Assembly: GCA_030272815.1 (NCBI GenBank)
Contig: JAJSZT010000007.1
Coordinates: forward strand, 31,319-95,318
Direction: 5' to 3'
DNA from: Deltaproteobacteria bacterium
Lineage (GTDB): Bacteria > Desulfobacterota > Desulfobacteria > Desulfobacterales > ETH-SRB1
Length of the DNA: 64,000 nt
Part shown: positions 39,444 to 60,921 of the stretch, in pieces
How the letters are laid out: each line of letters starts with the position of its first letter
Numbering within the stretch: the stretch's first letter is position 1
Made by a program: the position numbers and the translations under genes
The notes under the pieces: model-generated
What the model was told of the DNA's origin: nothing
The model's input: only the letters and a program-made list of their open reading frames with translations
Database searches by the model: none

Positions 39444-40094
39444 ATGGAAAAACAATTTATAATTGACGATTTTAAAATAGGCGAAGCATGGCGTCTGTTT
39501 AAAATTATGGGAGAATTCGTTGAAGGTATTGAGAGGCTTCACGATATTGGTCCTGCAGTGACTATTTTCGGTTCAGCCAGGATTAAAGAAGATGATCCAA
39601 TCTATAAGAAAACCGAAGAAATAGCGGCTCTTTTTGTCAAAAGCAATTTTGCTGTAATAACTGGCGGAGGGGGAGGCGTCATGGAAGCGGGGAATAAAGG
39701 GGCTCTAAGAGCAGGAGGCACCTCTGTTGGAATGAACATTGTCCTTCCGTTTGAGCAAAAACCAAATCAATATTCAAACGTTAAGCTGGAATTCAAATAT
39801 TTCTTCATCCGCAAGGTTATGTTTGTGAAATATGCCACTGCATATATTATTATGCCCGGAGGCTTAGGTACCTTAGACGAACTCTTTGAAGCTGTTACAC
39901 TCATTCAAACACACCGCATTAAACCCTTCCCTGTTATACTGGTGGGATCTGATTACTGGTCAGGACTGTTAGAATGGATCAAGGCTACCTTGCTTGAACA
40001 TCATAAGATATCTCATAATGATCTTGATATCCTGCAACTCATGGATGATCCTGAAGAAATCGTCAGGGCAGTAAAAAAAGTGGTAATTATTTAA
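39444..40094 (+). CDS. LOG family (TIGR00730) nucleotide phosphoribohydrolase
   Basis: Motifs GGGGGVMEAGNKGA and PGGLGTLDELFE. Confidence 0.85.
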   Translation: MEKQFIIDDFKIGEAWRLFKIMGEFVEGIERLHDIGPAVTIFGSARIKEDDPIYKKTEEIAALFVKSNFAVITGGGGGVMEAGNKGALRAGGTSVGMNIVLPFEQKPNQYSNVKLEFKYFFIRKVMFVKYATAYIIMPGGLGTLDELFEAVTLIQTHRIKPFPVILVGSDYWSGLLEWIKATLLEHHKISHNDLDILQLMDDPEEIVRAVKKVVII

Positions 40095-45864: not shown

Positions 45865-46206
45865 ATGCCACGTGTCAGCAAAATCTCAAAATCTCCGCCG
45901 GCCGCTGTAGAAGACATACTCAACCGGTTGGGCCGCAATATCCGTACAGCCCGTCTGCGGCGCAAGCTTTCCATGGAAGAGCTCGCCGAACGCGTCGGCA
46001 TCTCCCGATATGTTCTGGCCGATATCGAGAAGGGCAAGCCAACCACAGCAATAGCCGCTTATTTGGGTACACTGTGGGCACTCGGACTCCTCTGGAATAT
46101 GCGAGAGGTGGCCGATCCGGATCGCGATCAGGAAGGCAAGATTCTGGAGCGGGCTAGAAGCCCGAAGACGGCGCCAAAGCGAAAGACGATAAACGATGAC
46201 TTCTGA
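45865..46206 (+). CDS. hipB: XRE-family HTH antitoxin (HipB-like)
   Basis: HTH segment LSMEELAERVGISRYVLADIEKGKP. The gene overlaps the hipA start. Confidence 0.75.
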   Translation: MPRVSKISKSPPAAVEDILNRLGRNIRTARLRRKLSMEELAERVGISRYVLADIEKGKPTTAIAAYLGTLWALGLLWNMREVADPDRDQEGKILERARSPKTAPKRKTINDDF

Positions 46207-47464
46207 GCGCGAGTGCTATGTTTACATTGTGCCGCCTGACTCGACGGAATTCGTTACAGCAGGGCGATTCAATGTGTTCCTGACTCCTGATGGTGAGCCG
46301 GTAGGACAGTTCCTTTACGGGCGGCGCTATCTTGAACGTAATGATGCGGTCGAGCTCGATCCCGTAGAGTTACGCCTTCGCAGGGGGCCATACGAAACAG
46401 CGCGGATGGAAGGCTTTTTCGGCGCGATCCGTGATTCCATGCCTGATTTCTGGGGAAGGCGTGTCATTGAACGAAACACCGGCCACACGCAGCTCGAAGA
46501 GTTCGATTACCTGATGTACGGCCCGGATGACCGGGCGGGTGCGCTGGGGTTCGGCTTGAATGTACAACCACCGGCCACACAGAGCCGGTTTAACCGCACT
46601 CTTGATCTGGAATTTATACAGGCCGCAGCCGACGCCATCATCAATGATGATATGAACCTTGAGGGCTCGGCCGCCAGACAGGTCGAGGAACTCATGTTGA
46701 TCGGCACCTCACTTGGAGGTGCCCGGCCCAAAGCTGTGGTGGAGCACAGGCAGGGCTTGTGGATTGCCAAGTTTGGCCGGCATGACGACCGCTGGAACCA
46801 TCCCCGTGTAGAGCACGGAATGTTGAATCTTGCCGAAGCCTGTGGGCTTACCGTGGCTGACAGCGATATCACAAAGGTTGGCGGACGAGACGTTCTGTTA
46901 GTGCGCCGTTTCGACCGCGATCGAACGGAAGATAGTTACCGGCGCCACCGCATGGTCAGCGCGCTGACCATGTTGCAAAGCGATGACAACTCGGCAGCCC
47001 GGCGGGACTGGTCCTACATTTTGCTTGCAGATGAAATCCGGCGTGTGAGTATGAAACCGGAAGCCGATCTTCGCGAGCTGTTCGCCAGAATGTGCTTTAA
47101 CGCGGCAGTATCCAACCTGGACGATCATCCACGCAATCATGCCATTCTGGCAAAAGGCCGGAACTGGCGACTAAGCCCTGCATTTGACCTGACCCCCACG
47201 CCCATGATCGCCGTGGAAAGGCGCAATCTTGCTATGGCGTGTGGCAGCGTCGGGTGCTATGCCAACCGCAAGAATCTTCTGAGCCAACATGGCCGCTTCC
47301 TGTTATCCGAAGAAGACGCGACAGCCTTTCTCGATCACATCGTTGAGACTGTGCGAAACGCATGGCGGCCTACCATGCGACGGGCGGGCGTCAGCCGTGC
47401 CGACTGCGAAGCCATCTCTACTGCCTTCCTTTACGAAGGATTTTTTTACGAAGAAGCGGTATAG
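46196..47464 (+). CDS. hipA: HipA-family serine/threonine kinase toxin
   Basis: HipA N-terminal coupling region, GGARPKA, and catalytic SNLDDHPRNHA. The gene is GC-rich relative to its flanks. Confidence 0.85.
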   Translation: MTSERECYVYIVPPDSTEFVTAGRFNVFLTPDGEPVGQFLYGRRYLERNDAVELDPVELRLRRGPYETARMEGFFGAIRDSMPDFWGRRVIERNTGHTQLEEFDYLMYGPDDRAGALGFGLNVQPPATQSRFNRTLDLEFIQAAADAIINDDMNLEGSAARQVEELMLIGTSLGGARPKAVVEHRQGLWIAKFGRHDDRWNHPRVEHGMLNLAEACGLTVADSDITKVGGRDVLLVRRFDRDRTEDSYRRHRMVSALTMLQSDDNSAARRDWSYILLADEIRRVSMKPEADLRELFARMCFNAAVSNLDDHPRNHAILAKGRNWRLSPAFDLTPTPMIAVERRNLAMACGSVGCYANRKNLLSQHGRFLLSEEDATAFLDHIVETVRNAWRPTMRRAGVSRADCEAISTAFLYEGFFYEEAV

Positions 47465-47481
47465 ATGGTCGTTTCCCCAAA

Positions 47482-47973
47482 CCATGCCTTCCAGCCTATC
47501 GGCCGAATGTGAAGGTCAGAGAACAAACGCATCCAAAATTTTACTGGTTTGACTCTGGCGTTGCAAGAGCAGCCGCTGGTCTTCTTTTCGAGCCCGTTGA
47601 CAGGCTTTGGAAAGGTACGGCGCTGGAAAACATGATTTACCACGAATTAAGAGTCTATAATCTTACCCAAAACAAGAACCGACAGATATCTTTCTATCGT
47701 ACAGGCAGCGGGGTGGAAATCGATTTTGTGATTGAAATCCGGAAACGGCAAGCATCCTCTAATGCTCACATTGTTTGCCTGGAAGTAAAACTGGCGGAAA
47801 AATGGGATAGGAAATGGGAACGCCCTATGCGTTCGCTGAGCAACTCTGACCGTATCCATGTAGACAGGATGATTGGTATTTACATGGGCAAAAGAGCATA
47901 TCATTTTGACGGCTTAGACGTTCTGTCCCCGGAGGATTTCCTGAAACGGTTGCACCAGGGGGATGTTTTTTAG
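47482..47973 (+). pseudogene. 5'-truncated AAA ATPase (C-terminal DUF4143-type fragment)
   Basis: LPAYRPNVKVREQTHPKFYWFDSGVARAAAG...FYRTGSGVEIDFVI matches the C-terminal half of DUF4143 ATPases. The Walker region is absent. The ORF-track N-terminus overlaps hipA and is not credible. Confidence 0.6.
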
Positions 47974-49101: not shown

Positions 49102-51951
49102 TTACGCCGTAGCCACGGATGGCGAAGGCGTATTCTTTATGCATTGCTTAACTTTACTCTCAATATCCGATGGTTCAAAAGAAACATCCCAATGCCATTT
49201 GCCAAAGCCGCCTTGTTCATTAACTGCCTTTATCCATTCATTTAGATATTCTCGTTTTGTTTGGTTTTGCTGACTATCTTTACCTTTTGTTTCAATGACC
49301 ATGTATTCGCCGTTTGCCAGCCTGATAATAAAGTCGGGATAATATTTTCTTATGACTCCTTTGTGATTATATAGAATTGTAAATCCTAAATGATCATTTT
49401 TTACAAAGGATGTGACTAAATCTGATTTTTCAAGGAAATATGCTTCCGCAGCTTCCCATCCGCTGTCATATACGCAATGGCTGATATGTGATTTTTCAAT
49501 CCATTCGCAAGGTTTACTCGTAAACCAGGTTCTTACACCGGATGTTGACCTGATTGGATTTTCCTTGTCAAAAACAGGAGTTAATTTTTCAGTATTTTCA
49601 ACTCGTATTTCTGACCAGATGTGCTGAATGATTTTATTCATGTTGAGAATCATCAATATCTTCTTTTTTGAATCATCCTGATGAAATAACTCATGTTTGA
49701 TTGTGATTTTATTCGACTGAATAAACTCTTCAACAATTCTTACAACCTGTGCAAGAAATATTTCCTTGCTTCCTTTCCAATCCGGTCGTTTTTCTGAATT
49801 ATATATTGTAGAAGCAATCCTGAAAACTATTGTCTGTACTCTTGTGTCTTCTGCTATTTTTTCCAGACCAATTGCAGCTTTAACTGCCTTGTTTGGTTTT
49901 CCGGAAATAATCGCAGCCAAATCTGCCTCTGTAATAGACTCGTAAGGGTCTATCTCTAAAATCTTAACCTTGTCCCAATCCATTTTTAGCACTGGTCGAT
50001 ATACATGATCTATTCTGAGAATGTTCGGCCATGTAATTTCATGTTTTGATTTTTCTTTTACAGGCTCTATTTTTGTTTTTGGCGGTGGAGGTGGAGGCGG
50101 TGGCCCGTCACCTCCTTCATGTGGCAGGAATGTAAATGGAACACCGAATATATTAACATATTCCGGTTGAAATAAACCATCATCGCCTGCATCATAACTC
50201 ACTCTTCGGAGTCCACGCCCAACGACCTGCTCGCATAATAGCTGACTGGAAAAAGCTCTTAGTCCCATGATATGAGTTACTGTCCTGACATCCCATCCCT
50301 CTGAAAGCATACCCACAGAAATTATATTTTGAATCTGTTCGCCCGGTTTGCCCTCTCTGCCAATAGTATCAACAGTTTGACGTAATAACTCAGCTTGCTG
50401 TTTTTTTGTAAGTTTTGGGAGAATTTTTTCATTTTCTTCCCCGGCAACCACATTTATTTCAACAGTCTCTGTTTCTGATTCAGCTTCATTCAGTATCTTA
50501 CTGTCTATTTGCAGAGTTTTATCTGCATCACACAGTTCGGGGATTAATATCTGGTTATGGTCAAAAGCATATTTTATTCGTGCCGAAGTTTCAGTTCTAT
50601 TTGCAACAGTAATCATCACAGGCGGCACTTTATGACCAACATCCACCCATTCATTTCTGGTTTCCTGCCAGTCTTTTCCTAAAAGATAGTATGCGTTTAT
50701 CAATAAATCCGGAAGAGGTTCTGTTTCATCTGCTTTATGATTAATATTATCTTTTACTTCATCATCGGCATAAATATGATAAAGTCGTGATTTGAGTTCT
50801 TTGGTCACGATACTATCATCACGAACGACAACTCGAGGTGTTTTTACCAGCCCCGATTCAATGGCATCATTCAATCCAAAATCAGAGACAATCCATGTAA
50901 ACAAGGCTTCTTCTGCTGATTTTTTACCGGATGGTGTAAACGGAGTGGCAGAAAGGTCAAAGCAGCGCAGAATCCCTCTTTGTTCATGTATTCTGTCTAA
51001 GCCTCCGACCCAGATTGTAGCTTCTTCCGCACTGTCTTTTTCTGAACCGGTTCGCTTATATTTTCCGATTGCTTCCGGGTTCATACGCCATGCGTGGTGT
51101 GCTTCATCGTTAATCACAAGAATGTTCCGTGAATTAGCCATATCGCCCAAAACCTGCCGGACATAAGCCACGCCGCTTATTTCTGTCCGCTTTCTTTTGT
51201 CCACAGACCGCAAATGACCTTTTTTGATTTTTACATCAAGTTTTTCTTGGGTATCCCATGCCAGCGTATGCCAGTTTTGTATCAGCACTTTGCCTTGTCG
51301 GAGTTTGTCCATCAAAGATGCCGGTACGATATTAAACTCTTTATAGTAGTTTTCAGAGTGAGTTGGCTGTAATACCTGCAACCTGCTTTTTACTGTCAAA
51401 CCAGGAGCTACAACAAGAGCATTTTTACTGAACCGCGCATCGGTCGGGCTGGTTACTTTATTCAAAAAATTCCAGGCAATAATCATGGACATAATAATTG
51501 TCTTTCCCGAACCCGTGGCCATTTTACTGCACCAGCGTTCAAAAGCGCCGCCATCTCCATGAATATTTATGCCGACTTTTTCAGCAGCAGGAGCTTCAAT
51601 CAGCCAGATAAGCGTTTCAATCGCCTCCAACTGGCAAAAGAAAAATCTGCGGTCTTTGCGTTCCTCCGGGTTTTGCCAATGGTCTAATAATCTTTTGGTG
51701 ATACCGGTTACTCCGGGATAACCGGCTTCCCGCCATTTTTTAACTCTTGGTCGGATTTTATTGACCAATTCAATTTCTACAGGAATTCCCGGATCGTCAA
51801 ATGCTTGCGCGTTTGGTGTGGCCATGACATAACCCGCAGGTCTTCTGCCTTCTTTAATATTAAAATCTCCGTTTTTCCTGTCGTAAGACCAATGCTGTTT
51901 TGGCTCTTTGTAAGGGCTGTTTATAATCAGCTTGTCAATATTTTTTGCCAT
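49102..51951 (-). CDS. res: Type III restriction enzyme Res subunit (SF2 helicase plus C-terminal PD-(D/E)xK nuclease)
   Basis: Walker A MATGSGKT, DEAH box VINDEAHHAW, helicase C motifs (SEGWD, QVVGRGLRR) and the C-terminal YYPDFII...MVIETKGKD. It also has a P8 linker. Confidence 0.85.
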   Translation of the reverse strand: MAKNIDKLIINSPYKEPKQHWSYDRKNGDFNIKEGRRPAGYVMATPNAQAFDDPGIPVEIELVNKIRPRVKKWREAGYPGVTGITKRLLDHWQNPEERKDRRFFFCQLEAIETLIWLIEAPAAEKVGINIHGDGGAFERWCSKMATGSGKTIIMSMIIAWNFLNKVTSPTDARFSKNALVVAPGLTVKSRLQVLQPTHSENYYKEFNIVPASLMDKLRQGKVLIQNWHTLAWDTQEKLDVKIKKGHLRSVDKRKRTEISGVAYVRQVLGDMANSRNILVINDEAHHAWRMNPEAIGKYKRTGSEKDSAEEATIWVGGLDRIHEQRGILRCFDLSATPFTPSGKKSAEEALFTWIVSDFGLNDAIESGLVKTPRVVVRDDSIVTKELKSRLYHIYADDEVKDNINHKADETEPLPDLLINAYYLLGKDWQETRNEWVDVGHKVPPVMITVANRTETSARIKYAFDHNQILIPELCDADKTLQIDSKILNEAESETETVEINVVAGEENEKILPKLTKKQQAELLRQTVDTIGREGKPGEQIQNIISVGMLSEGWDVRTVTHIMGLRAFSSQLLCEQVVGRGLRRVSYDAGDDGLFQPEYVNIFGVPFTFLPHEGGDGPPPPPPPPKTKIEPVKEKSKHEITWPNILRIDHVYRPVLKMDWDKVKILEIDPYESITEADLAAIISGKPNKAVKAAIGLEKIAEDTRVQTIVFRIASTIYNSEKRPDWKGSKEIFLAQVVRIVEEFIQSNKITIKHELFHQDDSKKKILMILNMNKIIQHIWSEIRVENTEKLTPVFDKENPIRSTSGVRTWFTSKPCEWIEKSHISHCVYDSGWEAAEAYFLEKSDLVTSFVKNDHLGFTILYNHKGVIRKYYPDFIIRLANGEYMVIETKGKDSQQNQTKREYLNEWIKAVNEQGGFGKWHWDVSFEPSDIESKVKQCIKNTPSPSVATA

Positions 51952-51954
51952 CTG

Positions 51955-52467
51955 TTATATCCTTATACCAAGACGATCCAGCATTGTTACAAATTTGATC
52001 CACTCAACGCCTTGTTCATTACAAATCAGAGGAATCTTGTAATCTTTTTTCTTTTTCGGCTTTTGAGTTTGCTCTTCTTCATAAGTTACAACAATTTTCT
52101 TTTTTACTTTTGCGTAAGCAATTAAGGTAATATCATTTTGATTAGCGCCTTTTGGATTATTATTTGTTTCATATTCTTTCTCTAAATCCAAAGAAACAGC
52201 ATTTATTTCATCAGTAATCAGCTTTGCGTCAAGATGATTATCTATCATCCAGACACGCAGTGGATATTTTTCTCTTTTTTTGTTCTTTGGCAGTTTTTTA
52301 TCTGCCGTTGAAATGGGGTCAATCTCATCAAAGACAGGTTTGATCAAAACAAGATCATTTCGGTATTGTGCAAGGTGTTCCCATAAAGATGGAAACACCT
52401 TCATGGGATAGCTGCTGTTCCAGGCAGTGATAAAAATATTGGCATCAAGGCAATATTGACCACTCAT
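51955..52467 (-). CDS. DUF4411-like (PIN-like) protein
   Basis: The N-terminus YCLDANIFITAWNSSYPMKVFPSLWEHL is typical of DUF4411. The gene has a 4-nt overlap with the upstream ImmA/IrrE gene. Confidence 0.6.
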   Translation of the reverse strand: MSGQYCLDANIFITAWNSSYPMKVFPSLWEHLAQYRNDLVLIKPVFDEIDPISTADKKLPKNKKREKYPLRVWMIDNHLDAKLITDEINAVSLDLEKEYETNNNPKGANQNDITLIAYAKVKKKIVVTYEEEQTQKPKKKKDYKIPLICNEQGVEWIKFVTMLDRLGIRI

Positions 52468-53606
52468 AATTGCCTGCCTATCTCTAAAACATAAGGAACG
52501 CGCTTTAAATCAAATGCTTGACAAAGTTTATGTAACCCAAATTCCTTGTTGTGATATGCCTGAAAAAGGGCATTCGCGTAAATATGTCCGTATTGATTAA
52601 GCACTTCCTGTGGACGGTTTCTGGAAGGTCCGCCAGCACTTTCTTTAAGTTTCTTTTGCAACTTTCTATATTCAGCCTTTAATTGTGCTTCAAAATGTAG
52701 ATAATCGTCCTGATCAATTAGCCGCAATTGTCGGAGTCGCACCAGGCAGGCATAAGCACTGACCTGAAAATTACCGGCGATACTTTTTATCTCATCCAGA
52801 TCATCTATATTTATGTTGTGAATAGCGGTTTGAAACTGAGCAGCAGGCATTAATACATTGCCGGATAACTCGTCACACCATCTTTCAACCTGCTGGTGAT
52901 ACGCGGCGTCCCAGTCATCAATCGCACTTTCCTTTCTAAGCAGGTGTCCTAACTCATGAAACAGGGTGAATGATTGGGCCTTTTTTGCATCTGAATCATT
53001 GATAATGATGATCGGTAATTTCTGATGGTAAATGGCCAGCCCGCGAAACAGCGCTTTATCCACATGAGACCACCCCTTATACTTGCTGGTCATAAAAACA
53101 AAAATGTTTTTTTCTTCCAGCATTTCTTTCCATTTAGAAAACTTAAAACTCTCTTCTGTTATGTCTAACCAGTCACGCACCTGTTGCGCTGCAAAATCCG
53201 ACGCAGCATTTCTTTTCAACACCGGCGGATGAAAGGCAGTCACCGGTTCGCCCATATCTTCGCGCAGTTCTAAAATCAGCTCACGGAAACGGTCAACCCG
53301 AGCGATCAGGCTGCGAACATTATGTTCACTGAAAACATCTGCATTGCTGTCGGCAAACTGACGGAAGGCGGGTATTGCCTTATCAAGCTGATATTTTTCA
53401 GGAAGATGATCTGAAATAAATACCCAGCGAGGTACTTTATAAAGCTCCGCAAGAGTATCTAATTGTTTAAAGGTAGGTTTTTGATCTCCCTGCTCTATGA
53501 CAGCAATCTTTGCCACTTTTTTTGCAACGGCAGGAAGACTTAAACCAATCTGCTCACGGCATTGACGTAATATATCCTTATTTATATTTTCAACTCTTCC
53601 TGCCAT
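52464..53606 (-). CDS. XRE HTH + ImmA/IrrE (M78) zinc metallopeptidase fusion
   Basis: N-terminal HTH (LRQCREQIGLSLPAVAKKV) and the HEXXH motif FHELGHLL. Its start overlaps the mod stop (TAATG). Confidence 0.7.
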   Translation of the reverse strand: MAGRVENINKDILRQCREQIGLSLPAVAKKVAKIAVIEQGDQKPTFKQLDTLAELYKVPRWVFISDHLPEKYQLDKAIPAFRQFADSNADVFSEHNVRSLIARVDRFRELILELREDMGEPVTAFHPPVLKRNAASDFAAQQVRDWLDITEESFKFSKWKEMLEEKNIFVFMTSKYKGWSHVDKALFRGLAIYHQKLPIIIINDSDAKKAQSFTLFHELGHLLRKESAIDDWDAAYHQQVERWCDELSGNVLMPAAQFQTAIHNINIDDLDEIKSIAGNFQVSAYACLVRLRQLRLIDQDDYLHFEAQLKAEYRKLQKKLKESAGGPSRNRPQEVLNQYGHIYANALFQAYHNKEFGLHKLCQAFDLKRVPYVLEIGRQL

Positions 53607-55930
53607 TACTCCACCTTTATTACCCGCAGGGATTCAATCCCGCGATCATCAATGATTTTTACTGCAATTGTTTTGCCCGGCTCAAACTCAAGCGAGGTTG
53701 TGCCTTTAAAAGCTTCAATTTTTTCTTCGTCTATTTCAGCTTTTAAGTTCTTGGCCAGTTTTGTCCATCCGTCCTTTGCTCCTGCCATTGGGAAGAATAC
53801 CTGTGATGGAAAAAGCGACCGGTTGTCATAATCAGTATCCAGCATCCACATAGCGATATTCTTTTTTCCTCCGCTTTCCACATTGCCGGTTTTTGGATTG
53901 TAATAGTCAAAACCCATCACTTCCACCTGCACTTTGCCGTCTTTTTGTTTACGAACCTTTACATCAGGCTGACCGACCAGCCAGAAGCTTTCATTGCTTG
54001 ATCGTTTTTTACGCAGATCATCGGTAAACATATCCGCATTCATATGGGCTTTTAAGAGCTGCATGCCGGTAATTTCAGGAGTAAGTTCATCAATATCTTT
54101 GGCCGCTTCATCGTCAAACTGAAAAGCACAGAACAAAAGCATATCGGGATTTAAAGCACGGGCTTCCTGCCAGGCGTCTTCTACCTGTCTTTGTTCCAGC
54201 GGCGCATGTTCGGGGCCAAAGACAACTAATACTTTTTTGGGAACATCCTCTTTAGTTTCCGCTTCTGCTTGAATGAATTTTGTGCCTGAAAGCGGTTCAA
54301 CACGGGTGAACTGGATTATCTTTCCGCCTTTGGCTCTGACTCCGGTTCGTAATAATTCATCCCGCCATTCGCTTTGGCGGTGAGTTTCACCGGTGCGGGC
54401 AATGGAGGTGTCTGAACCGCTATCATCTTTTTCCAGTTCATCAAAACTTTTGGCATAAGGAGCAGGGACAGCTTCTACTGTAAATGGGCCGGTGATGCGG
54501 GTTTTCTTTTTATCAATAAAAGGCTGGTCGTAAAGTGTTTCCGTTGCCGGAGGTTCATTATTGGCAATGCTTTTGAGCGTAATATGCGGCACGGATTTGT
54601 ACTCAAAACCACTTCCGACACCTTCATCTGGATGAGCCAGTTTGTAGTAGGTAAAATTAGCTGTCATCAACCGTTGTTTGGCAAGTGTGAGAGCTACTCT
54701 TGAAGTGTCGCAGGTTATCCAGCGTCTGCCCCATTGCTCGGCAACATTAGCTGTTGTGCCGCTGCCGCAGGTTATATCTAAAACAAGGTCGCCAGGGTCA
54801 GTGGACATTAGGAGGCAACGTTTGACGACTAACAGTGAAGTTTGAACTACATAATCAAGTCTTGCAACTCCCATAGTGTCGTCCCATAAACTTCTCAATC
54901 CATTAACAGGAAAGTCATCAAAAAACCTAATATATTCTATCGTTTTCCCTGATTTTAATATTCTGCTATTACTGTTCAGATTTTTTAAACCGTCTATTGA
55001 TGTTTTCCAGTGGGCATTTTCATTTGGCTTATATTCCTTTCCATCAAACTCAAACAACTGTTCAGTATTAGATTTTCCTGATGATTGTAAACTCTGTTTC
55101 CTAAAAATTCTTGAATTTTTGGGTAAAATGTTTGGATTTATTATTTCCTGCTCTGTTAATTTCCTTATTGTTCCATCTGCAAGAAGCACATTTCTATACA
55201 TGCTGTCTTCTGCGACACTTTTCGAAACATACAAAGGATTATATTTTATATTTGATTTACTTTTTGAATACCAAATAAGGTAATCTGCAACATTAGCAAG
55301 AGTAAGTGTTGAGAATCCCCCTGTTTTTTTAAATGAAATCAAACTCACAAAATTCTCAACCCCAAACACCTCATCCATAATCTCCCGAACATGATGAACA
55401 TTCTCATCACTAATCTGCACAAACACACTACCGCTTTCATGTAGCATTTCACGAGCAAGCAGCATGCGATTCCGCAGATAAGTCAGATACGAATGAATGC
55501 CCAGCTCCCAAGTATCCCGAAAGGCTTTAATCATTTCCGGCTCGGCAGACAGGTCTTCGTCCTTACCGTCTGTTACATCCCGCTTATTCACAAATGGCTG
55601 AAAGTTACTGCCATATTTAATCCCATAAGGCGGGTCAAAATAAACCATTTGCACCTTGCCGGCCATGCCCTCTTTTTCCAGCAGAGAGTTCATCACCAGC
55701 AGGCTGTCCCCGGCAATCAGGCGGTTACTCCAGCCCTCTTTATGCTTGTAAAAATCAATGGCTTCCCGCAGGGGTTTTTGTTCAGTTTCAAAAAGCGACA
55801 TCTGCGCCGGCCCGGTCTTTTCTTTCGTTACCGTGTCAATAATGGTTTTCGGGTCTATTCGCTCATGAACATGCAGACTGACTGTCGGCACTTCAAAACT
55901 GGTGTGTTCCGCCTTGCCTGCCCACTGCAA
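53606..55930 (-). CDS. mod: Type III R-M Mod DNA methyltransferase (main reading frame, N-terminus disrupted)
   Basis: MVYFDPPYG motif IV and the SAM-binding DITCGSGTTA. The ORF-track start is a TTG inside the conserved ...DPHLDPQLQWAGK segment. Confidence 0.85.
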   Translation of the reverse strand: MQWAGKAEHTSFEVPTVSLHVHERIDPKTIIDTVTKEKTGPAQMSLFETEQKPLREAIDFYKHKEGWSNRLIAGDSLLVMNSLLEKEGMAGKVQMVYFDPPYGIKYGSNFQPFVNKRDVTDGKDEDLSAEPEMIKAFRDTWELGIHSYLTYLRNRMLLAREMLHESGSVFVQISDENVHHVREIMDEVFGVENFVSLISFKKTGGFSTLTLANVADYLIWYSKSKSNIKYNPLYVSKSVAEDSMYRNVLLADGTIRKLTEQEIINPNILPKNSRIFRKQSLQSSGKSNTEQLFEFDGKEYKPNENAHWKTSIDGLKNLNSNSRILKSGKTIEYIRFFDDFPVNGLRSLWDDTMGVARLDYVVQTSLLVVKRCLLMSTDPGDLVLDITCGSGTTANVAEQWGRRWITCDTSRVALTLAKQRLMTANFTYYKLAHPDEGVGSGFEYKSVPHITLKSIANNEPPATETLYDQPFIDKKKTRITGPFTVEAVPAPYAKSFDELEKDDSGSDTSIARTGETHRQSEWRDELLRTGVRAKGGKIIQFTRVEPLSGTKFIQAEAETKEDVPKKVLVVFGPEHAPLEQRQVEDAWQEARALNPDMLLFCAFQFDDEAAKDIDELTPEITGMQLLKAHMNADMFTDDLRKKRSSNESFWLVGQPDVKVRKQKDGKVQVEVMGFDYYNPKTGNVESGGKKNIAMWMLDTDYDNRSLFPSQVFFPMAGAKDGWTKLAKNLKAEIDEEKIEAFKGTTSLEFEPGKTIAVKIIDDRGIESLRVIKVE

Positions 55931-55955
55931 TTGCGGATCAAGGTGGGGGTCATAT

Positions 55956-56090
55956 TCATAGGTTTTCTTTTCCCCCTGTATCCGGGTCGCTCTTCGGCGT
56001 CACCAAACCCACCGGCGGGTTATTCGCCCGCTTTTTATTCGAGTGTTCGTACTGTTCAATCTGTTTTTCGGTTTTCTTTCTTTTTGCCAT
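55956..56090 (-). other. mod: Detached N-terminal 44-codon fragment of mod, in a different frame
   Basis: MAKRKKTEKQIEQYEHSNKKRANNPPVGLVTPKSDPDTGGKENL-stop. Deleting 1 nt in the G5/A4 run (55963-55976) would fuse it to ...KKTYEYDPHLDPQLQWAGK in the main frame. Confidence 0.7.
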
Positions 56091-56205: not shown

Positions 56206-57078
56206 TTAAACACCCCTTATCCCCCAACTTTCAACTAATTTTTTAGCTCGCTCGGGCACACCCCATGAGCCTTCAATCTGTCCATTATTTTCAGCAGCCT
56301 TTGTAATTCTTTTAGAATAGATAGGACTCCAAGCGTCTAGTTCCTCCAGTAGTCTCATGTTGTCCTTTGCATTTTGAAAGCTATCTGACGATTCAAATCG
56401 AGCGACAAGAACCTCCGCCATTCTTCTTTGAGTTTGTTTATGTTGGCGAAGCACATCGAATATTTCCTTTGCTATATTTTCAACTGTTTTTCCATTTCCG
56501 TTGAATGCTTGAAAACGGCCAATAAAGCCATACGGGTCTTGATCAAATCTGATCGAAAATACAGGCAAACCACGACCCATTGCGAAACCAACTTCTTGAT
56601 CGGTCCAATTGCTTTCCTTAAAACCGTCATGCATTAGTGCTATCAGCACTTCGCAGGTAGATAATGCCGTTTCAATTTCATTTTGCCATTCAGTAGTAGG
56701 CTCAATGTCGTTATGAGCAACAAACGCTGTCAAACAATAACGCTTCATCGCTTCTTGTAATTCTGCTGCAAATTCACGATGGACAGCGAGATGGGCAAGA
56801 AAGACACGAACATAGCCATCTTTCCAAAATGGCGGGTCTATTCCTGGTTCAGGAGTGCTGACTTCGAAACCGATATGATGAGCTAACGCTATTAGAGCAT
56901 CATCAGACGCTTTTGTAGCCATCTCGATAACATATGCGTCCTTTTCACCCGACCAAGTATCGGTTGTCGGCAGGCCGAACTGGCTCAAAGTAAGGTCTAT
57001 TAATGGCCATTCTTCGCCGGACAGTCTACGACCGGCTTCCGCTATAATCTTGATTCTTTCAGATGGATTTAACGACAT
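56206..57078 (-). CDS. TIR-like domain protein
   Basis: The central region VFLAHLAVHREFAAELQEAM...AFVAHNDIEPTTEW...LIALMHDGFKESNWTDQEVGFAMG matches the bacterial TIR/TIR_2 pattern, including a candidate catalytic Glu. Confidence 0.65.
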   Translation of the reverse strand: MSLNPSERIKIIAEAGRRLSGEEWPLIDLTLSQFGLPTTDTWSGEKDAYVIEMATKASDDALIALAHHIGFEVSTPEPGIDPPFWKDGYVRVFLAHLAVHREFAAELQEAMKRYCLTAFVAHNDIEPTTEWQNEIETALSTCEVLIALMHDGFKESNWTDQEVGFAMGRGLPVFSIRFDQDPYGFIGRFQAFNGNGKTVENIAKEIFDVLRQHKQTQRRMAEVLVARFESSDSFQNAKDNMRLLEELDAWSPIYSKRITKAAENNGQIEGSWGVPERAKKLVESWGIRGV

Positions 57079-57105
57079 AGTATTTTAGGGTGTGCATGTT
57101 AGGTT

Positions 57106-57990
57106 TTATGATCTCTTTCTGATAGTATCAATGCCTAAGTATTTTGGAACTGAACTTTCTACCGACTTTGTAGAGGAAGATTTTTCGCTGTTGCACTCAG
57201 GGCATGTAAGTTGAAGGTTCATTAAGTCGTTTGTGCCACCTTGCGCCAAGGAAACTATATGATCAATGTTTTGCTGCCCTGATTCCAAAATAATACTTTT
57301 CTCACAAATTGCACAATTCCCACGGTCTCTTGCCTGAATGGCTCGCTCTACCCATTTTGGCCATTTTTCGCGTTTAATCCACTGCGCCGGTTTTTCATCT
57401 GTATGATTAGTGCCATACGTTCCCCAACCATATCTAGAAAATTGCAATTGCCTTGATATATATTCACACATTTCTCTATCATGAAAAACGCGTTCAGCGA
57501 ATCTACTAGCGTATTCATACTTTAAATCAGCCAAACTAGATGAATTCTTTTCCAATAAGTACATCCACGCCTTTTTAAGATTACCGTTATATTCTATAGT
57601 TCCTATTTTGGTGTTACCGGTCCGGTCGTACTCCTCCAGCAACTCTTCAATATACCTATCAAGTCGAATTCCGAGATTTTTTGTTTCTAATTCGTGGTAA
57701 CTCAAAAAATCAATTAACTCGACCAAACCACTATATAAATATAAATAAAGTTCATCGCTTCTTTCCGCCCCATAACCAATAACATTGTGAGGTCTAAGGT
57801 ATTCATTATAAACTTCTGTTCCTAAATAGTACAAAAAACCCTCTCTAATGGTCTTATGAAAGACCGATTTATTTGATTTTGCTGCTTCCTCCGCAATAAA
57901 ATAAAAATGTCCTTCCATCCAGCTTTCATCAAGCAAGTTACTTATACCATTAGCACTAATTCTAAGTATAGCTGGGGTAAATAACCTCAT
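57106..57990 (-). CDS. HNH endonuclease domain protein with an N-terminal domain of unknown function
   Basis: C-terminal RDRGNCAICEKS...IDHIVSLAQGGTNDLMNLQLTCPECNSEK. The stop is 27 nt upstream of the TIR gene start. Confidence 0.7.
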   Translation of the reverse strand: MRLFTPAILRISANGISNLLDESWMEGHFYFIAEEAAKSNKSVFHKTIREGFLYYLGTEVYNEYLRPHNVIGYGAERSDELYLYLYSGLVELIDFLSYHELETKNLGIRLDRYIEELLEEYDRTGNTKIGTIEYNGNLKKAWMYLLEKNSSSLADLKYEYASRFAERVFHDREMCEYISRQLQFSRYGWGTYGTNHTDEKPAQWIKREKWPKWVERAIQARDRGNCAICEKSIILESGQQNIDHIVSLAQGGTNDLMNLQLTCPECNSEKSSSTKSVESSVPKYLGIDTIRKRS

Positions 57991-58162
57991 CTAAATCCAA
58001 TCCTATTAGGAATATTGATCGTTGCTATACCACCTAAAGCTCACCAGCACCAGAAGCCAATGAGGACTTGGCAAAGCTAAAGTTTTACTCTGAAACAGCA
58101 AAAGTGAAAAACGCCCCGGCTTCTGGTGCCAGGTGCAGTGAGTGGTTTGGTTATGCACCGAG

Positions 58163-58966
58163 TCAAAACGGTATATCATTTAAGTTCCAAGCTTCAGTTT
58201 CTATTTTTTTAGTTTTCTTTTCTAATTCTTGGATAAATCGTATAGAACTCGTTATGTGATCAAAAATAAGCAACGCTTCGGAATATTTAAGAATTTTGTT
58301 GTCATGAGCAAAGCTATGCTTATTCCTTACATGATTAAAGGCTTTCATATTAGAAATACTTGACTTTAATATTCTTTCAGTCATTTCTGATTCTATTAGC
58401 CCTTTATCTCTAACTTTTTTTATATATTCGCCTACAAGACCATGAAGTGGTTTCCTTTGATCTATGCAAATTTCGTGTTTTTCACACAACACTCGGAAAT
58501 ACTTAACTATAAAGGTATGCAACCTATCTAAACCAACTTCTGGCTCATTTCTATCAATGGAATCACGGACTGCTTTTGCAAGTGTCTCAAAATCTTTATC
58601 GTCAGAGTTTGGAACTACTGCATCAATGTTAGGAACTGGAGCACTTAACATTAATCGCTGGACAATCTTAATATATTCATCTGGCGGTGATTCTGGATCG
58701 CCATGATCTTTGAATTCATCCCATTCATCAGCAATATCAGATAGTAGCTTACCTACTGTATGGTTTGATTCCAAATCCCAAAATGCTCTCATACGATTAG
58801 CTTTGGAACCACTATTCCAGTCATATTTATCATCGTAAATTTCCTTGCCGCTACTTTCCAAAACTGTTTCTTCAAATGTTCTATTGGAATAACCTAATAC
58901 ATACCCACTACCCATTCCCAAGACTTGTTCCAGTATTCTTTTTTCTTTTTTTGTCAGATTAGACAA
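58163..58966 (-). CDS. Abi_C (abortive infection C-terminus, AbiJ-like) domain protein
   Basis: The C-terminal ...MKAFNHVRNKHSFAHDNKILKYSEALLIFDHITSSIRFI matches the Abi_C RN..xxAH motif. Confidence 0.6.
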   Translation of the reverse strand: MSNLTKKEKRILEQVLGMGSGYVLGYSNRTFEETVLESSGKEIYDDKYDWNSGSKANRMRAFWDLESNHTVGKLLSDIADEWDEFKDHGDPESPPDEYIKIVQRLMLSAPVPNIDAVVPNSDDKDFETLAKAVRDSIDRNEPEVGLDRLHTFIVKYFRVLCEKHEICIDQRKPLHGLVGEYIKKVRDKGLIESEMTERILKSSISNMKAFNHVRNKHSFAHDNKILKYSEALLIFDHITSSIRFIQELEKKTKKIETEAWNLNDIPF

Positions 58967-59062
58967 TTAATTCTCCAAATTTAGGTTTATAATACAAAGT
59001 TAGGACGCGGGAAACGCGTCAGCGATTTCCCGTCGATACTCAAACGATTCGTTAGAGCATTA

Positions 59063-60073
59063 TTATAAATACATTTTATGATACTCTTCTGCTTTCTTTG
59101 AATTGGTCCTAAATGTAAGTGGGCCGGACGAAGAACCCCGGCCTGAGAAAGCGGAAATGTATCCAGTTAAGTCGAGGTTAAAAAAGTCAAAGCGAGGGAA
59201 ACTAAACATTTTTCTATATCTTTTTTCGACTGACCCATCAGGATCTAAGCAAATCACGTCAATTTTTTGTAAATTCTTTGATTCAACAAGTGCGGTACTC
59301 AATAAATGCTTTATATAAATATCTATCTGTGGAAATGAATAACCTAAAATCCTTATCTCGTTTGCCTCACTTAGCCAAAGGGCAGATTTCCTCCAAGCAT
59401 TATTTATTCCTGAATTTATGCTTTTGTTCCATGTTGGCGGAACTATTGAACCGTCAACACTACCATGTAATTTTGCTAATGGGATGGAAAAAGAAGATCC
59501 AAAATGTTTGTTTATGAATGCTAATGAATTTTCAATTATGTTGTCATAATTCAAGGTGACTATCTTGTACTCAGTATCTGTGGGTTGTTCCTTTTCAGCC
59601 ACAAAATCACTATACTGATAAGTCTCTTTATTCTCATCTTTTTTTCCAACAAATACCAAATTAAGTAGCGAAGCAATGAAGCTAACATACTGCCTCGTAA
59701 CCTGATTTGAGCCCAATAAAATTTCGAATGAGTTCCGAGATGTGTAAAAGCCAGCATCGTGTGGTAAAAATTCTGGTGAATAGAATAAAATTACATCTTT
59801 TATGAATTGCTGAAGGTCCTTTCTTAAACCTTTGCCCAGTAATTCATGGGTATCGGCTATGCTGAATACCTCTTCAACATTAAACAAATCGACATTTATA
59901 AAGTTTTTTGCTTTAGATAGGCTGTCTATATATTCAAAAACTACTTCGAAATATGAATACTTGTGAGGATCTGAAAAATATTGATCTCTGGATAGGAAAA
60001 GAAAATTTGATATCACGGGTAATCCGGCAGGCACTGAAAATCCTGCTCCAATAAAATAGACAACATTTTTCAT
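59063..60073 (-). CDS. SIR2-like (SIR2_2) domain protein
   Basis: VVYFIGAGFSVPAGLPV, TLNYDNIIE and KLHGSVDG are the hallmark motifs of defence-type SIR2 domains. At 336 aa there is no evident C-terminal sensor domain. Confidence 0.65.
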   Translation of the reverse strand: MKNVVYFIGAGFSVPAGLPVISNFLFLSRDQYFSDPHKYSYFEVVFEYIDSLSKAKNFINVDLFNVEEVFSIADTHELLGKGLRKDLQQFIKDVILFYSPEFLPHDAGFYTSRNSFEILLGSNQVTRQYVSFIASLLNLVFVGKKDENKETYQYSDFVAEKEQPTDTEYKIVTLNYDNIIENSLAFINKHFGSSFSIPLAKLHGSVDGSIVPPTWNKSINSGINNAWRKSALWLSEANEIRILGYSFPQIDIYIKHLLSTALVESKNLQKIDVICLDPDGSVEKRYRKMFSFPRFDFFNLDLTGYISAFSGRGSSSGPLTFRTNSKKAEEYHKMYL

Positions 60074-60539: not shown

Positions 60540-60704
60540 TCATGTCAACAAAAGTGGTTTCACCCAGGTATCATCTGCCGGAGATATAGGGCAGGCTACT
60601 GAAACAAACAGAGCTGCGAATTGATCAAGGATAGAAAAAGGCAGCTCGTTTTTTGACAAATAAATAAGTATGTTGCTGTCCAATAACGCACTATTTCCAT
60701 TCAT
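60540..60704 (-). pseudogene. vapC: Truncated PIN-domain toxin (VapC N-terminal ~45 aa only)
   Basis: MNGNSALLDSNILIYLSKNELPFSILDQFAALFVSV, then an unrelated sequence and a stop. The ATG overlaps the stop region of the upstream antitoxin. Confidence 0.6.
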
Positions 60705-60921
60705 CGCGTAATTCCTGCTGCCATTTTTTGGGATCTTTAATCTCCACAAAAGGTTTTATGCCTGGATATTTTTTAAACAGGCTTTCAAGCTTTATGCTTA
60801 TCTTGCCCGTATCTTTTAAAGGTCGGATTTTTATTTCAAGATCTTTATATAAAAAATCCTCTGGAATTTTTATACAGTGGTGGATACTTGACCCTTTTTT
60901 TATGACTGTATATTCTTGCAT
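60691..60921 (-). CDS. vapB: Small antitoxin-like protein (VapB-type partner)
   Basis: A 76-aa ORF directly upstream of, and overlapping, the PIN fragment. Confidence 0.45.
   Translation of the reverse strand: MQEYTVIKKGSSIHHCIKIPEDFLYKDLEIKIRPLKDTGKISIKLESLFKKYPGIKPFVEIKDPKKWQQELRDEWK

Follow-up and report, generated by a model that had tools for sequence, protein, structure and literature searches.

Four neighbouring genes on one strand of the DNA analysed here (the window, 64,000 nucleotides long) encode a SIR2-like, an Abi_C, an HNH and a TIR protein, and this arrangement raises the question of whether they constitute one defence system or several. Type I Thoeris combines a TIR protein (ThsB) with a SIR2 protein (ThsA) that bears a SLOG signal-binding domain; Thoeris of any type keeps the TIR gene next to its effector gene in a co-conserved operon. 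The original prediction for the locus offered two answers: three stacked small systems, one of which would be an HNH-TIR pair, or an undescribed multi-effector NAD-signalling or NAD-depletion system.

The gene string itself is as predicted. Four co-directional open reading frames occupy positions 56206-60073, all on the minus strand (Table 1), and the catalytic motifs expected of them are intact in all four proteins. The string also occurs in two further assemblies of the source organism (L168 and L169), which excludes an assembly artefact. The SIR2, Abi_C and HNH genes have a GC content of 34-37%, compared with 42% for the window. Spacers of 96 nt (SIR2 to Abi_C), 172 nt (Abi_C to HNH) and 27 nt (HNH to TIR) separate the genes, the last of these confirming the gap initially reported. 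A hairpin had been proposed to follow the SIR2 gene, and its fold energy of -24.9 kcal/mol (z = -3.0), which none of 200 shuffled sequences equalled, substantiates it; this hairpin lacks a clean T-run. The clearer terminator-like hairpin is the one 3′ of the Abi_C gene, where a T-run is present and a 13-bp inverted repeat (58046-58058 and 58118-58130) encloses the structure.

Table 1. Features of the four-gene string and of the adjoining restriction-modification genes, in order of transcription.
Feature	Position in window	Strand	Remarks
SIR2-like gene	59063-60073	-	336 aa; called SIR2-336
SIR2 to Abi_C spacer, two hairpins	58967-59062	-	RNA fold
Abi_C/HEPN gene	58163-58966	-	267 aa (Abi_C-267); TTG start
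Terminator-like hairpin with T-run, just past the Abi_C stop codon	58115-58133	-	
HNH gene	57106-57990	-	294 aa; called HNH-294
TIR gene	56206-57078	-	290 aa; called TIR-290
Type III restriction-modification Mod	53606-55930, frameshifted 5′ end up to 56089	-	Pfam/PADLOC scans
M78/HTH RmrA-like gene	52464-53606	-	Pfam/PADLOC scans
DUF4411/PIN-like gene	51955-52467	-	Pfam/PADLOC scans
Res	49102-51951	-	Pfam/PADLOC scans

The region is best explained as the upstream part of a defence island of about 11 kb. The rest of this island (49102-56089, minus strand) comprises a type III restriction-modification system and a nested RosmerTA-like pair. One relative (L052) has TIR-Mod-Res in common with this locus.

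SIR2-336 scores 16.8 bits with Pfam SIR2_2, which is under the cut-off of 24.5, and matches the PADLOC Aga_SIR2 model weakly (1.7e-8). The SIR2 assignment nevertheless stands, because many of its 479 homologues (about 335-360 aa) carry PF13289, because Foldseek matches its AlphaFold2 model (pLDDT 90, pTM 0.90; a single compact SIR2 fold) to the SIR2 of SIR2-HerA, to KomC and to sirtuins with a probability of 1.0, and because the motifs GAGFS, N175-Y-D177 and H203-G-S are invariant in 37 homologues, with G9, G11, S13, N175, D177 and H203 as the invariant residues that represent the GAGxS Rossmann motif, the N/D pair and the catalytic His. The Foldseek alignments, to SIR2-only chains, span the whole protein. 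Pfam scanning, the AlphaFold2 model and Foldseek reveal no SLOG, Macro or other sensor domain, in agreement with the earlier description of the protein as lacking a SLOG/Macro extension. SIR2-336 is a stand-alone SIR2-family protein and a predicted NAD+-consuming effector.

Structurally, SIR2-336 is matched best by the SIR2 proteins of the SIR2-HerA (Nezha) and Kongming systems, the latter being KomC; Foldseek E values lie between about 5e-7 and 2e-6, and both proteins are likewise SIR2-only and of similar size. However, their sequence identity to SIR2-336 is just 12-15%, with a TM-score of roughly 0.4-0.5, and no HerA, KomA or KomB lies near the SIR2 gene in the window or in the eight homologue contexts. 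SIR2-HerA, Kongming and DSR1-2 have either a partner gene or a large fused sensor (about 1,000 aa); unlike DSR1-2, SIR2-336 comprises just 336 aa and has no large fused sensor. The eight contexts have no common neighbour, such that the SIR2 gene alone is shared, and three of them place the SIR2 homologue within or next to prophage genes or on a viral contig.

Abi_C-267 was described at the outset as an AbiJ-like Abi_C protein, and its Abi_C domain (37.9 bits versus a cut-off of 24; E 1.9e-9; residues 177-246) and HEPN motif bear this out. An uncharacterised N-terminal domain precedes a predicted C-terminal HEPN RNase domain with an R-N-x5-H motif (R214-N215-KHSFA-H221), in which N215 never varies and R214 and H221 are kept in at least 90% of 35 sequences. 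The family is large, with 1,773 matching cluster representatives that are mostly full length, and ‘abortive infection family protein’ is the annotation given to its plasmid homologues. Both plasmid loci inspected, from among 56 plasmid records, adjoin restriction-modification genes; a conserved hypothetical gene upstream of the plasmid homologues is unrelated to the SIR2 family.

Judged by its sequence, the Abi_C gene can be assigned to the validated group of stand-alone Abi_C/AbiJ/SadR genes. Defence by a stand-alone Abi_C RNase has been validated for SadR (PMC13590631), and the likeness extends to a length of about 270 aa, a non-catalytic N-domain followed by a C-terminal Abi_C domain with R-N-x5-H, and a single-gene organization that is often found near restriction-modification systems and also on plasmids. 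The N-domain differs in falling outside the Pfam AbiJ_NTD families: no Pfam N-terminal family, AbiJ-NTD3, -NTD4 and -NTD5 included, was found in 35 family members, and the PADLOC AbiJ model fails to match Abi_C-267, matching one of the 35 members (2e-4). This pattern agrees with the report that in most Abi_C proteins no N-terminal domain is recognised, and that none of the proteins is called by PADLOC (PMC13590631). The N-terminal domains of AbiJ-type proteins have been proposed to act as sensor or inhibitor (PMC3710099).

The predicted architecture of HNH-294, a C-terminal HNH nuclease joined to an unfamiliar N-domain, is upheld by a clear Pfam HNH match (44.1 bits versus a cut-off of 21.4; E 2.3e-11; residues 226-272) and by the lack of any Pfam match for the N-domain in 24 members. 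The N-terminal 200 or so residues constitute a family-specific domain with the motif AERVFHDRxLCxYIS. The C-terminus is a beta-beta-alpha-Me HNH with a CxxC...CxxC zinc site and D243-H244, and the catalytic residues are invariant in the family alignment. The protein resembles McrA (type IV) in its size of about 290 aa and its zinc-bound C-terminal HNH. Yet the match to the McrA 6ghc profile is limited to the HNH part (residues 219-272, E 8.7e-4), and no similarity of the N-domain to McrA, to SRA or to any Pfam family could be detected. Septu pairs the HNH protein PtuB with the ATPase PtuA. PADLOC PtuB models match the HNH core of HNH-294 alone (E of about 3e-6), whereas no PtuA ATPase neighbours the gene here or in 25 HNH loci.

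TIR-290 was predicted to be a TIR-like protein with extensions at both ends, and its Pfam TIR_2 score (46.1 bits versus a cut-off of 28; E 8.5e-12; residues 92-193), its fold and its flanking helical domains all support that description. A four-helix N-domain (residues 1-70), the TIR domain (88-195) and a helical C-domain (199-288) make up the protein, and the catalytic residue E162 (WTDQE) is invariant in 20 sequences. Foldseek matches the TIR core only of the AlphaFold2 model (pLDDT 83), to BtpA, SARM1 and AbTir with a probability of 1.0, and finds no structural relative of the N- and C-terminal helical domains in the PDB. Clustering at 90% identity gives at least 1,723 groups of homologues, with 168 matches in species-representative genomes from many phyla, and the best 120 of the 1,723 are at least 54% identical over their full length.

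The nearest counterparts of TIR-290 are stand-alone TIR NADases and the PADLOC candidates (PDC) PDC-S34 and PDC-S66, which it resembles as a single gene whose product has a TIR core with a catalytic Glu and whose neighbourhood varies. PDC-S34 matches 18 of 20 family members, in the C-terminal helical region, and PDC-S66 matches 16 of 20, in each case weakly and partially (E of about 1e-5). TIR-290 differs from stand-alone TIR NADases in a cross-phylum conservation that is far above the usual. PADLOC ThsB also gives a weak match (7e-6). Indeed, PADLOC matches across the string are weak and confined to generic domains, with Abi_C-267 unmatched; none of the four genes would be called as a known system. 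Only the Abi_C gene corresponds to an already defined single-gene system, and the SIR2, HNH and TIR proteins are uncharacterised stand-alone families.

Co-occurrence was assessed within about 5-6 kb of each homologue, in 79 loci for TIR, 25 for HNH, 8 for SIR2 and 2 plasmid types for Abi_C. None of the approximately 115 related loci outside the source organism carries two or more of the four families. The 79 species-level TIR-290 loci have no HNH, Abi_C or SIR2 homologue within 6 kb, and clustering of their neighbours yields no common family; plasmid copies of the TIR family stand alone. Some of the genes that directly flank TIR-290 homologues match models for restriction-modification (types I, III and IV) and PDC models. 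The 25 HNH loci show neither a conserved neighbour nor TIR-290. At the nucleotide level, homology is gene-sized: TIR homology to two other loci (L171 and L170; 89% and 83%) is confined to 57093-56203, which is the reading frame plus 15 nt, and SIR2 homology to locus L165 (97%) is confined to 60091-59063, the reading frame plus 18 nt.

Because each gene is found alone in other genomes, the string looks like a set of separate cassettes rather than a Thoeris-like machine, and because the HNH-TIR pair is not conserved elsewhere, the modules number four rather than three. Most likely, these are four independently acquired or mobile single-gene effector cassettes that share one strand, front the type III restriction-modification system and act separately. 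The original idea of stacked, independent small systems therefore holds with a revised count. The undescribed multi-effector NAD system is not supported, in view of the lack of co-occurrence in about 115 loci, a SIR2 protein devoid of a signal-binding domain and homology that ends at gene borders.

The conservation of TIR-290 bears on whether the genes are immune at all. Family members are 55-60% identical across many phyla over their whole length, which is unusual for fast-evolving defence genes, and this high conservation (mean column identity of 70%) could point to a non-defence role. TIR-290 also resembles MilB and DNPH1 structurally and matches Nuc_deoxyrib_tr (4.8e-5), several SIR2 homologues lie amid housekeeping genes, and the HNH domain of HNH-294 has its nearest relatives among IscB/Cas9-type and phage HNH domains. 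On such grounds, part or all of the gene set might be non-immune, with TIR-290 as a nucleotide N-glycosidase or housekeeping-type enzyme, SIR2-336 as a deacylase or ADP-ribosyltransferase and HNH-294 as a selfish homing-type nuclease. We regard this as unlikely, however: TIR_2 is well above threshold for TIR-290 and Nuc_deoxyrib_tr is under its cut-off, no full-length HNH-294 homologues were found in phage genomes, the genes show a patchy distribution, unconserved neighbours and gene-sized mobile blocks, and restriction-modification, toxin-antitoxin and other defence genes adjoin them both at this locus and at some of the related ones.

The short HNH/TIR spacer contains no hairpin or terminator, and the two genes are therefore probably co-transcribed here; terminator-like structures precede the HNH gene, and DNases are among the predicted effectors of TIR signals in a TIR survey (10.64898/2025.12.03.692087). 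These features would suit a lineage-specific pair in which one protein serves as sensor or signal producer and the other as effector, an arrangement that we consider very unlikely. The 79 TIR loci and 25 HNH loci never combine the two families, and HNH is absent beside even the TIR orthologues of 91% and 86% identity, which lie in unrelated gene contexts. Moreover, in other genomes 15 nt of the 27-nt spacer accompany the TIR cassette before homology ends, the HNH family, with 27 matches against 1,723 for the TIR family, is rarer by a factor of about 60, and HNH-294 has no recognisable signal-binding domain.

Finally, a non-canonical Thoeris-like circuit, in which an ADPR-derived signal made by the TIR protein activates SIR2 and perhaps the HEPN and HNH proteins too, is extremely improbable despite the shared domains and a different TIR gene, of the CAP12-PCTIR type, immediately 5′ of the SIR2 copy in L165 (95% identical), given that just two of eight SIR2 contexts have some TIR gene nearby and the other six have none, the two TIRs near SIR2 copies have no detectable similarity (hhalign probability 0.2%), SIR2-336 lacks a SLOG domain, its gene is parted from the TIR gene by two unrelated genes and two terminator-like hairpins and is not co-conserved with it in related loci, and TIR-290, which has conserved N- and C-terminal domains of its own and is always found alone, reaches 37.4 bits against a cut-off of 220 with the NCBIfam ThcB4 model (NF058526; residues 101-178 only).

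If the four are separate cassettes, as we favour, each protein would combine a standard toxic effector domain with its own uncharacterised domain or insert, which may keep the enzyme off until infection is sensed, AbiJ/SadR and other single-protein systems providing the analogy. We infer an anti-phage function for all four, with the following candidate substrates. SIR2-336 would deplete NAD+, and Abi_C-267 would cleave RNA with its HEPN site (R-N-x5-H). HNH-294, whose size and layout (recognition domain first, HNH at the C-terminus) resemble McrA-type enzymes, would cut DNA. TIR-290 would hydrolyse NAD+ through E162 following self-association. The proteins would then provide parallel, separate layers with no signal passing between them.

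A more tentative proposal, to which we give somewhat less than an even chance, is that TIR-290 represents an unrecognised, widespread and unusually conserved single-gene TIR immune protein, whose helical domains sense infection directly to switch on the TIR NADase, and that the rare HNH-294, with its new N-domain of about 200 aa, is a second new single-gene nuclease defence.

The occurrence of Thoeris-type domains together in one gene string is not evidence of a Thoeris-like system. The value of comparative data on these four mobile genes is mainly negative, in that they argue against a multi-gene reconstruction and for single-gene tests. TIR-290, SIR2-336 and HNH-294 are stand-alone effector families that current defence-finding models leave uncalled. 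Among them, TIR-290 stands out for its commonness and conservation, and stand-alone TIRs were deliberately excluded from the latest systematic TIR survey, which set them aside along with TIRs that are likely NAD+-depleting effectors (10.64898/2025.12.03.692087).

Four co-directional genes, encoding SIR2-336, Abi_C-267, HNH-294 and TIR-290 (named by protein length), are present exactly as described in the original prediction, which read them either as stacked small systems or as an undescribed Thoeris-like multi-effector NAD system. In this order, the genes are separated by spacers of 96, 172 and 27 nt. An identical four-gene string is also carried by two more assemblies of this organism. The GC content of the SIR2, Abi_C and HNH genes is 34–37%, compared with 42% for the window. 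Three of the four predicted domains (Abi_C, HNH and TIR_2) score above their Pfam thresholds, and SIR2_2 scores below. All four proteins retain their catalytic residues. Sequence comparison supports the stacked-systems alternative in a stronger form, in which the string consists of four separate single-gene cassettes.

Coordinates of the four genes in the window and the evidence for each
Feature	Position	Strand	Evidence
SIR2-like (336 aa)	59063-60073	-	ORF
Abi_C (267 aa)	58163-58966	-	ORF, Pfam Abi_C 37.9 bits, above threshold
HNH (294 aa)	57106-57990	-	ORF, Pfam HNH 44.1 bits, above threshold
TIR (290 aa)	56206-57078	-	ORF, Pfam TIR_2 46.1 bits, above threshold

The clearest single result is that nucleotide homology ends at the ORF borders for the SIR2 and TIR genes. 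For a SIR2 copy in the related locus L165 (97% identical), the nucleotide alignment spans window positions 60091-59063, beginning 18 nt before the start codon and ending at the stop codon. For TIR copies at 89% and 83%, the alignment spans 57093-56203, covering the ORF together with 15 nt on its 5′ side and 3 nt past the stop codon. Thus, the TIR cassette includes more than half of the 27-nt HNH–TIR spacer and excludes the HNH gene.

Gene neighbourhoods were compared within about 5–6 kb of each gene, with small context samples for SIR2 and Abi_C. Among all loci compared, two or more of the families were found together only in two assemblies of the same organism. Neighbour clustering of 79 TIR, 25 HNH and 8 SIR2 loci likewise revealed no conserved partners. 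The TIR loci, obtained with flanks of roughly 6 kb by scanning one genome per species, derive from Acidobacteriota, Pseudomonadota, Planctomycetota, Verrucomicrobiota and others. Homologues of the window HNH, Abi_C or SIR2 gene were found in none of these 79 loci, and clustering the four genes on each side of TIR yielded no neighbour family in more than three of them. The 91% identical TIR-290 orthologue neighbours DUF4365 genes, and the 86% identical one neighbours glutaredoxin and DUF2238 genes; plasmid copies stand alone. The HNH loci, all with full or nearly full copies, have no common neighbour and no TIR-290; their neighbours include FRG, DUF2971, SLFN/AlbA_2, an integrase and a methylase. 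Nothing except the SIR2 gene is common to the small sample of eight SIR2 contexts, which include PCTIR-TIR with GmrSD, a phage portal gene, a terminase gene, glutamate synthase, AdoHcyase with MTHFR, and a Phd/PIN toxin–antitoxin pair.

The defining features of Thoeris fail at this locus. SIR2-336 consists, as predicted, of SIR2 alone and lacks a SLOG, Macro or other sensor domain. Moreover, the TIR gene of the string is not adjacent to the SIR2 gene, and the two are not conserved together. A Thoeris-like multi-effector system is not supported. The NCBIfam model for Thoeris type III reaches 37 bits, with a cut-off of 220. A point favouring a Thoeris link is that, in L165, the gene immediately upstream of the near-identical SIR2 encodes another TIR, of the CAP12-PCTIR type. 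Six of the eight SIR2 contexts are without any TIR, and we read the L165 arrangement as ordinary clustering of defence genes. At L165 412-3831, a 95% identical SIR2 has this TIR protein (260 aa) on one side and a GmrSD-type enzyme on the other; the L165 TIR was rejected as a relative of TIR-290 (hhalign probability 0.2%). A LOG/‘lysine decarboxylase’-family protein with a SLOG cluster4 match (window 39444-40094, plus strand) resides 19 kb away among cell-envelope genes; it is of housekeeping type and no candidate for a ThsA-like sensor at the locus.

The SIR2 identity is upheld despite a Pfam SIR2_2 score of 16.8 bits against a threshold of 24.5, because PF13289 is carried by many of 479 SIR2-336 homologues, Foldseek aligns the AlphaFold2 model (pLDDT 90, pTM 0.90) at a probability of 1.0 to SIR2-HerA (SIR2 subunit), KomC and classical sirtuins, and GAGFS, N175-Y-D177 and H203 are invariant across 37 homologues. 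NAD+ depletion would be the default expectation for this protein. A sequence search of solved structures gave no match, and a scan of viral contigs gave one distant match.

Abi_C-267 carries a HEPN motif (R214-N215-x5-H221) and appears to belong to the Abi_C/AbiJ kind, as does SadR, a stand-alone RNase that blocks phage and plasmids (PMC13590631). Clustered at 50%, its family has 1,773 representatives, most of which are full length. Most Abi_C proteins lack a recognised N-terminal domain, and PADLOC calls none of them (PMC13590631); Abi_C-267 and its family agree on both points, and a Pfam scan of family members matched the N-terminal domain to no family. This domain has been proposed to be a sensor or inhibitor (PMC3710099). 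Searches with Abi_C-267 found no match among solved-structure sequences and none in viral contigs. Homologues on Pseudomonas, Aeromonas and Klebsiella plasmids are labelled ‘abortive infection family protein’ and adjoin type II restriction–modification genes; a conserved 274-aa gene upstream of them was rejected as a hidden SIR2 relative (hhalign probability 0.4%). An alignment of 35 family sequences (A5) reveals that in many members, including the window protein (58163-58180), a variable linker leads into a conserved C-terminal tail, D-[IL]-P-F, which may be a docking or regulatory motif.

HNH-294 represents a rare family (27 matches) with invariant residues C226/C229/C263/C266, D243-H244, N258 and N267. 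Its size and layout are McrA-like, but its N-terminal region of about 200 aa was matched to nothing in a Pfam scan of family members, and a sequence search of solved structures recovered only the generic HNH core. In one locus (L004 3516-11885), an HNH homologue is flanked by a 1,347-aa SLFN/AlbA_2 protein on one side and by a type II Thoeris pair (a TIR-like protein and a ThsA_Macro protein) on the other. The homologue is followed by an overlapping 317-aa gene of unknown function, and the contig also holds a phage tail tape-measure gene. In L001 (7696-8579), L002 and L003, the homologue is split, apparently by a frameshift, into 55-aa and 192-aa ORFs adjoining an integrase and a DUF6429 gene.

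RNA folding confirms the predicted hairpin 3′ of the SIR2 gene (59010-59040; −24.9 kcal/mol, z = −3.0), and a better terminator-like hairpin with a T-run lies directly 3′ of the Abi_C gene (58115-58133). The Abi_C–HNH spacer contains a 13-bp inverted repeat, GGCACCAGAAGCC (58046-58130), with arms about 60 nt apart and one mismatch (fold −50 kcal/mol, z = −2.4). It was rejected as a repeated element because it does not recur in the window beyond one 1-mismatch, chance-level match. An Rfam scan of 45–62 kb gave no match.

The string is followed on the same strand by genes for a type III restriction–modification Mod, an M78/HTH protein that matches the PADLOC RmrA and capP models, a DUF4411/PIN-like protein and the type III Res. 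The two genes between mod and res (51955-53606, minus strand) look like a RosmerTA-like toxin–antitoxin or regulator pair nested in the restriction–modification operon. The closest public genome, the Desulfobacteraceae metagenome-assembled genome Eth-SRB2, has TIR-Mod-Res in common with the window; its contig ends inside the TIR gene, and its mod–res slot (L052) holds a different 270-aa ORF. The 5′ end of mod is frameshifted (55930-56089, minus strand): the ATG at 56089 opens 44 codons (MAKRKK...DPDTGGKENL*), and the conserved continuation KKTYEYDPHLDPQLQWAGK follows the run GGGGGAAAAG in another frame. A pseudogene, phase variation or a sequencing error could each explain this; two other assemblies have the same gene call. 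Beyond Res, a HipA kinase gene (46196-47973) of 57% GC (GC3 62%), versus 42% for the window, is followed by a DUF4143 fragment and looks like foreign DNA at one island edge. On the upstream side of the string comes first a small toxin–antitoxin remnant and, farther out, core genes (PerR, multihaem cytochrome). At 60540-60921 (minus strand), a 76-aa ORF and a short overlapping ORF, which starts like a PIN/VapC toxin (LLDSNILIYL) but is truncated at ~55-69 aa, are probably a decayed toxin–antitoxin pair at the other edge.

The TIR-290 core, with an invariant E162 in a WTDQE motif, lies between an N-domain of four helices and a helical C-domain, for neither of which Foldseek of the AlphaFold2 model found a PDB relative. 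A sequence search of solved structures recovered only the generic TIR core, and Foldseek against viral structures only generic TIR or deoxyribosyltransferase cores. Family members weakly match the PADLOC single-gene candidates PDC-S34 and PDC-S66. A systematic TIR survey set stand-alone TIRs aside, alongside likely NAD+-depleting effector TIRs (10.64898/2025.12.03.692087). The family has 1,723 matches of about 290 aa, the top 120 being at least 54% identical over the full length. What is new at the locus is confined to uncharacterised representatives of known kinds; its abundance and strong conservation make the TIR-290 family the most interesting lead.
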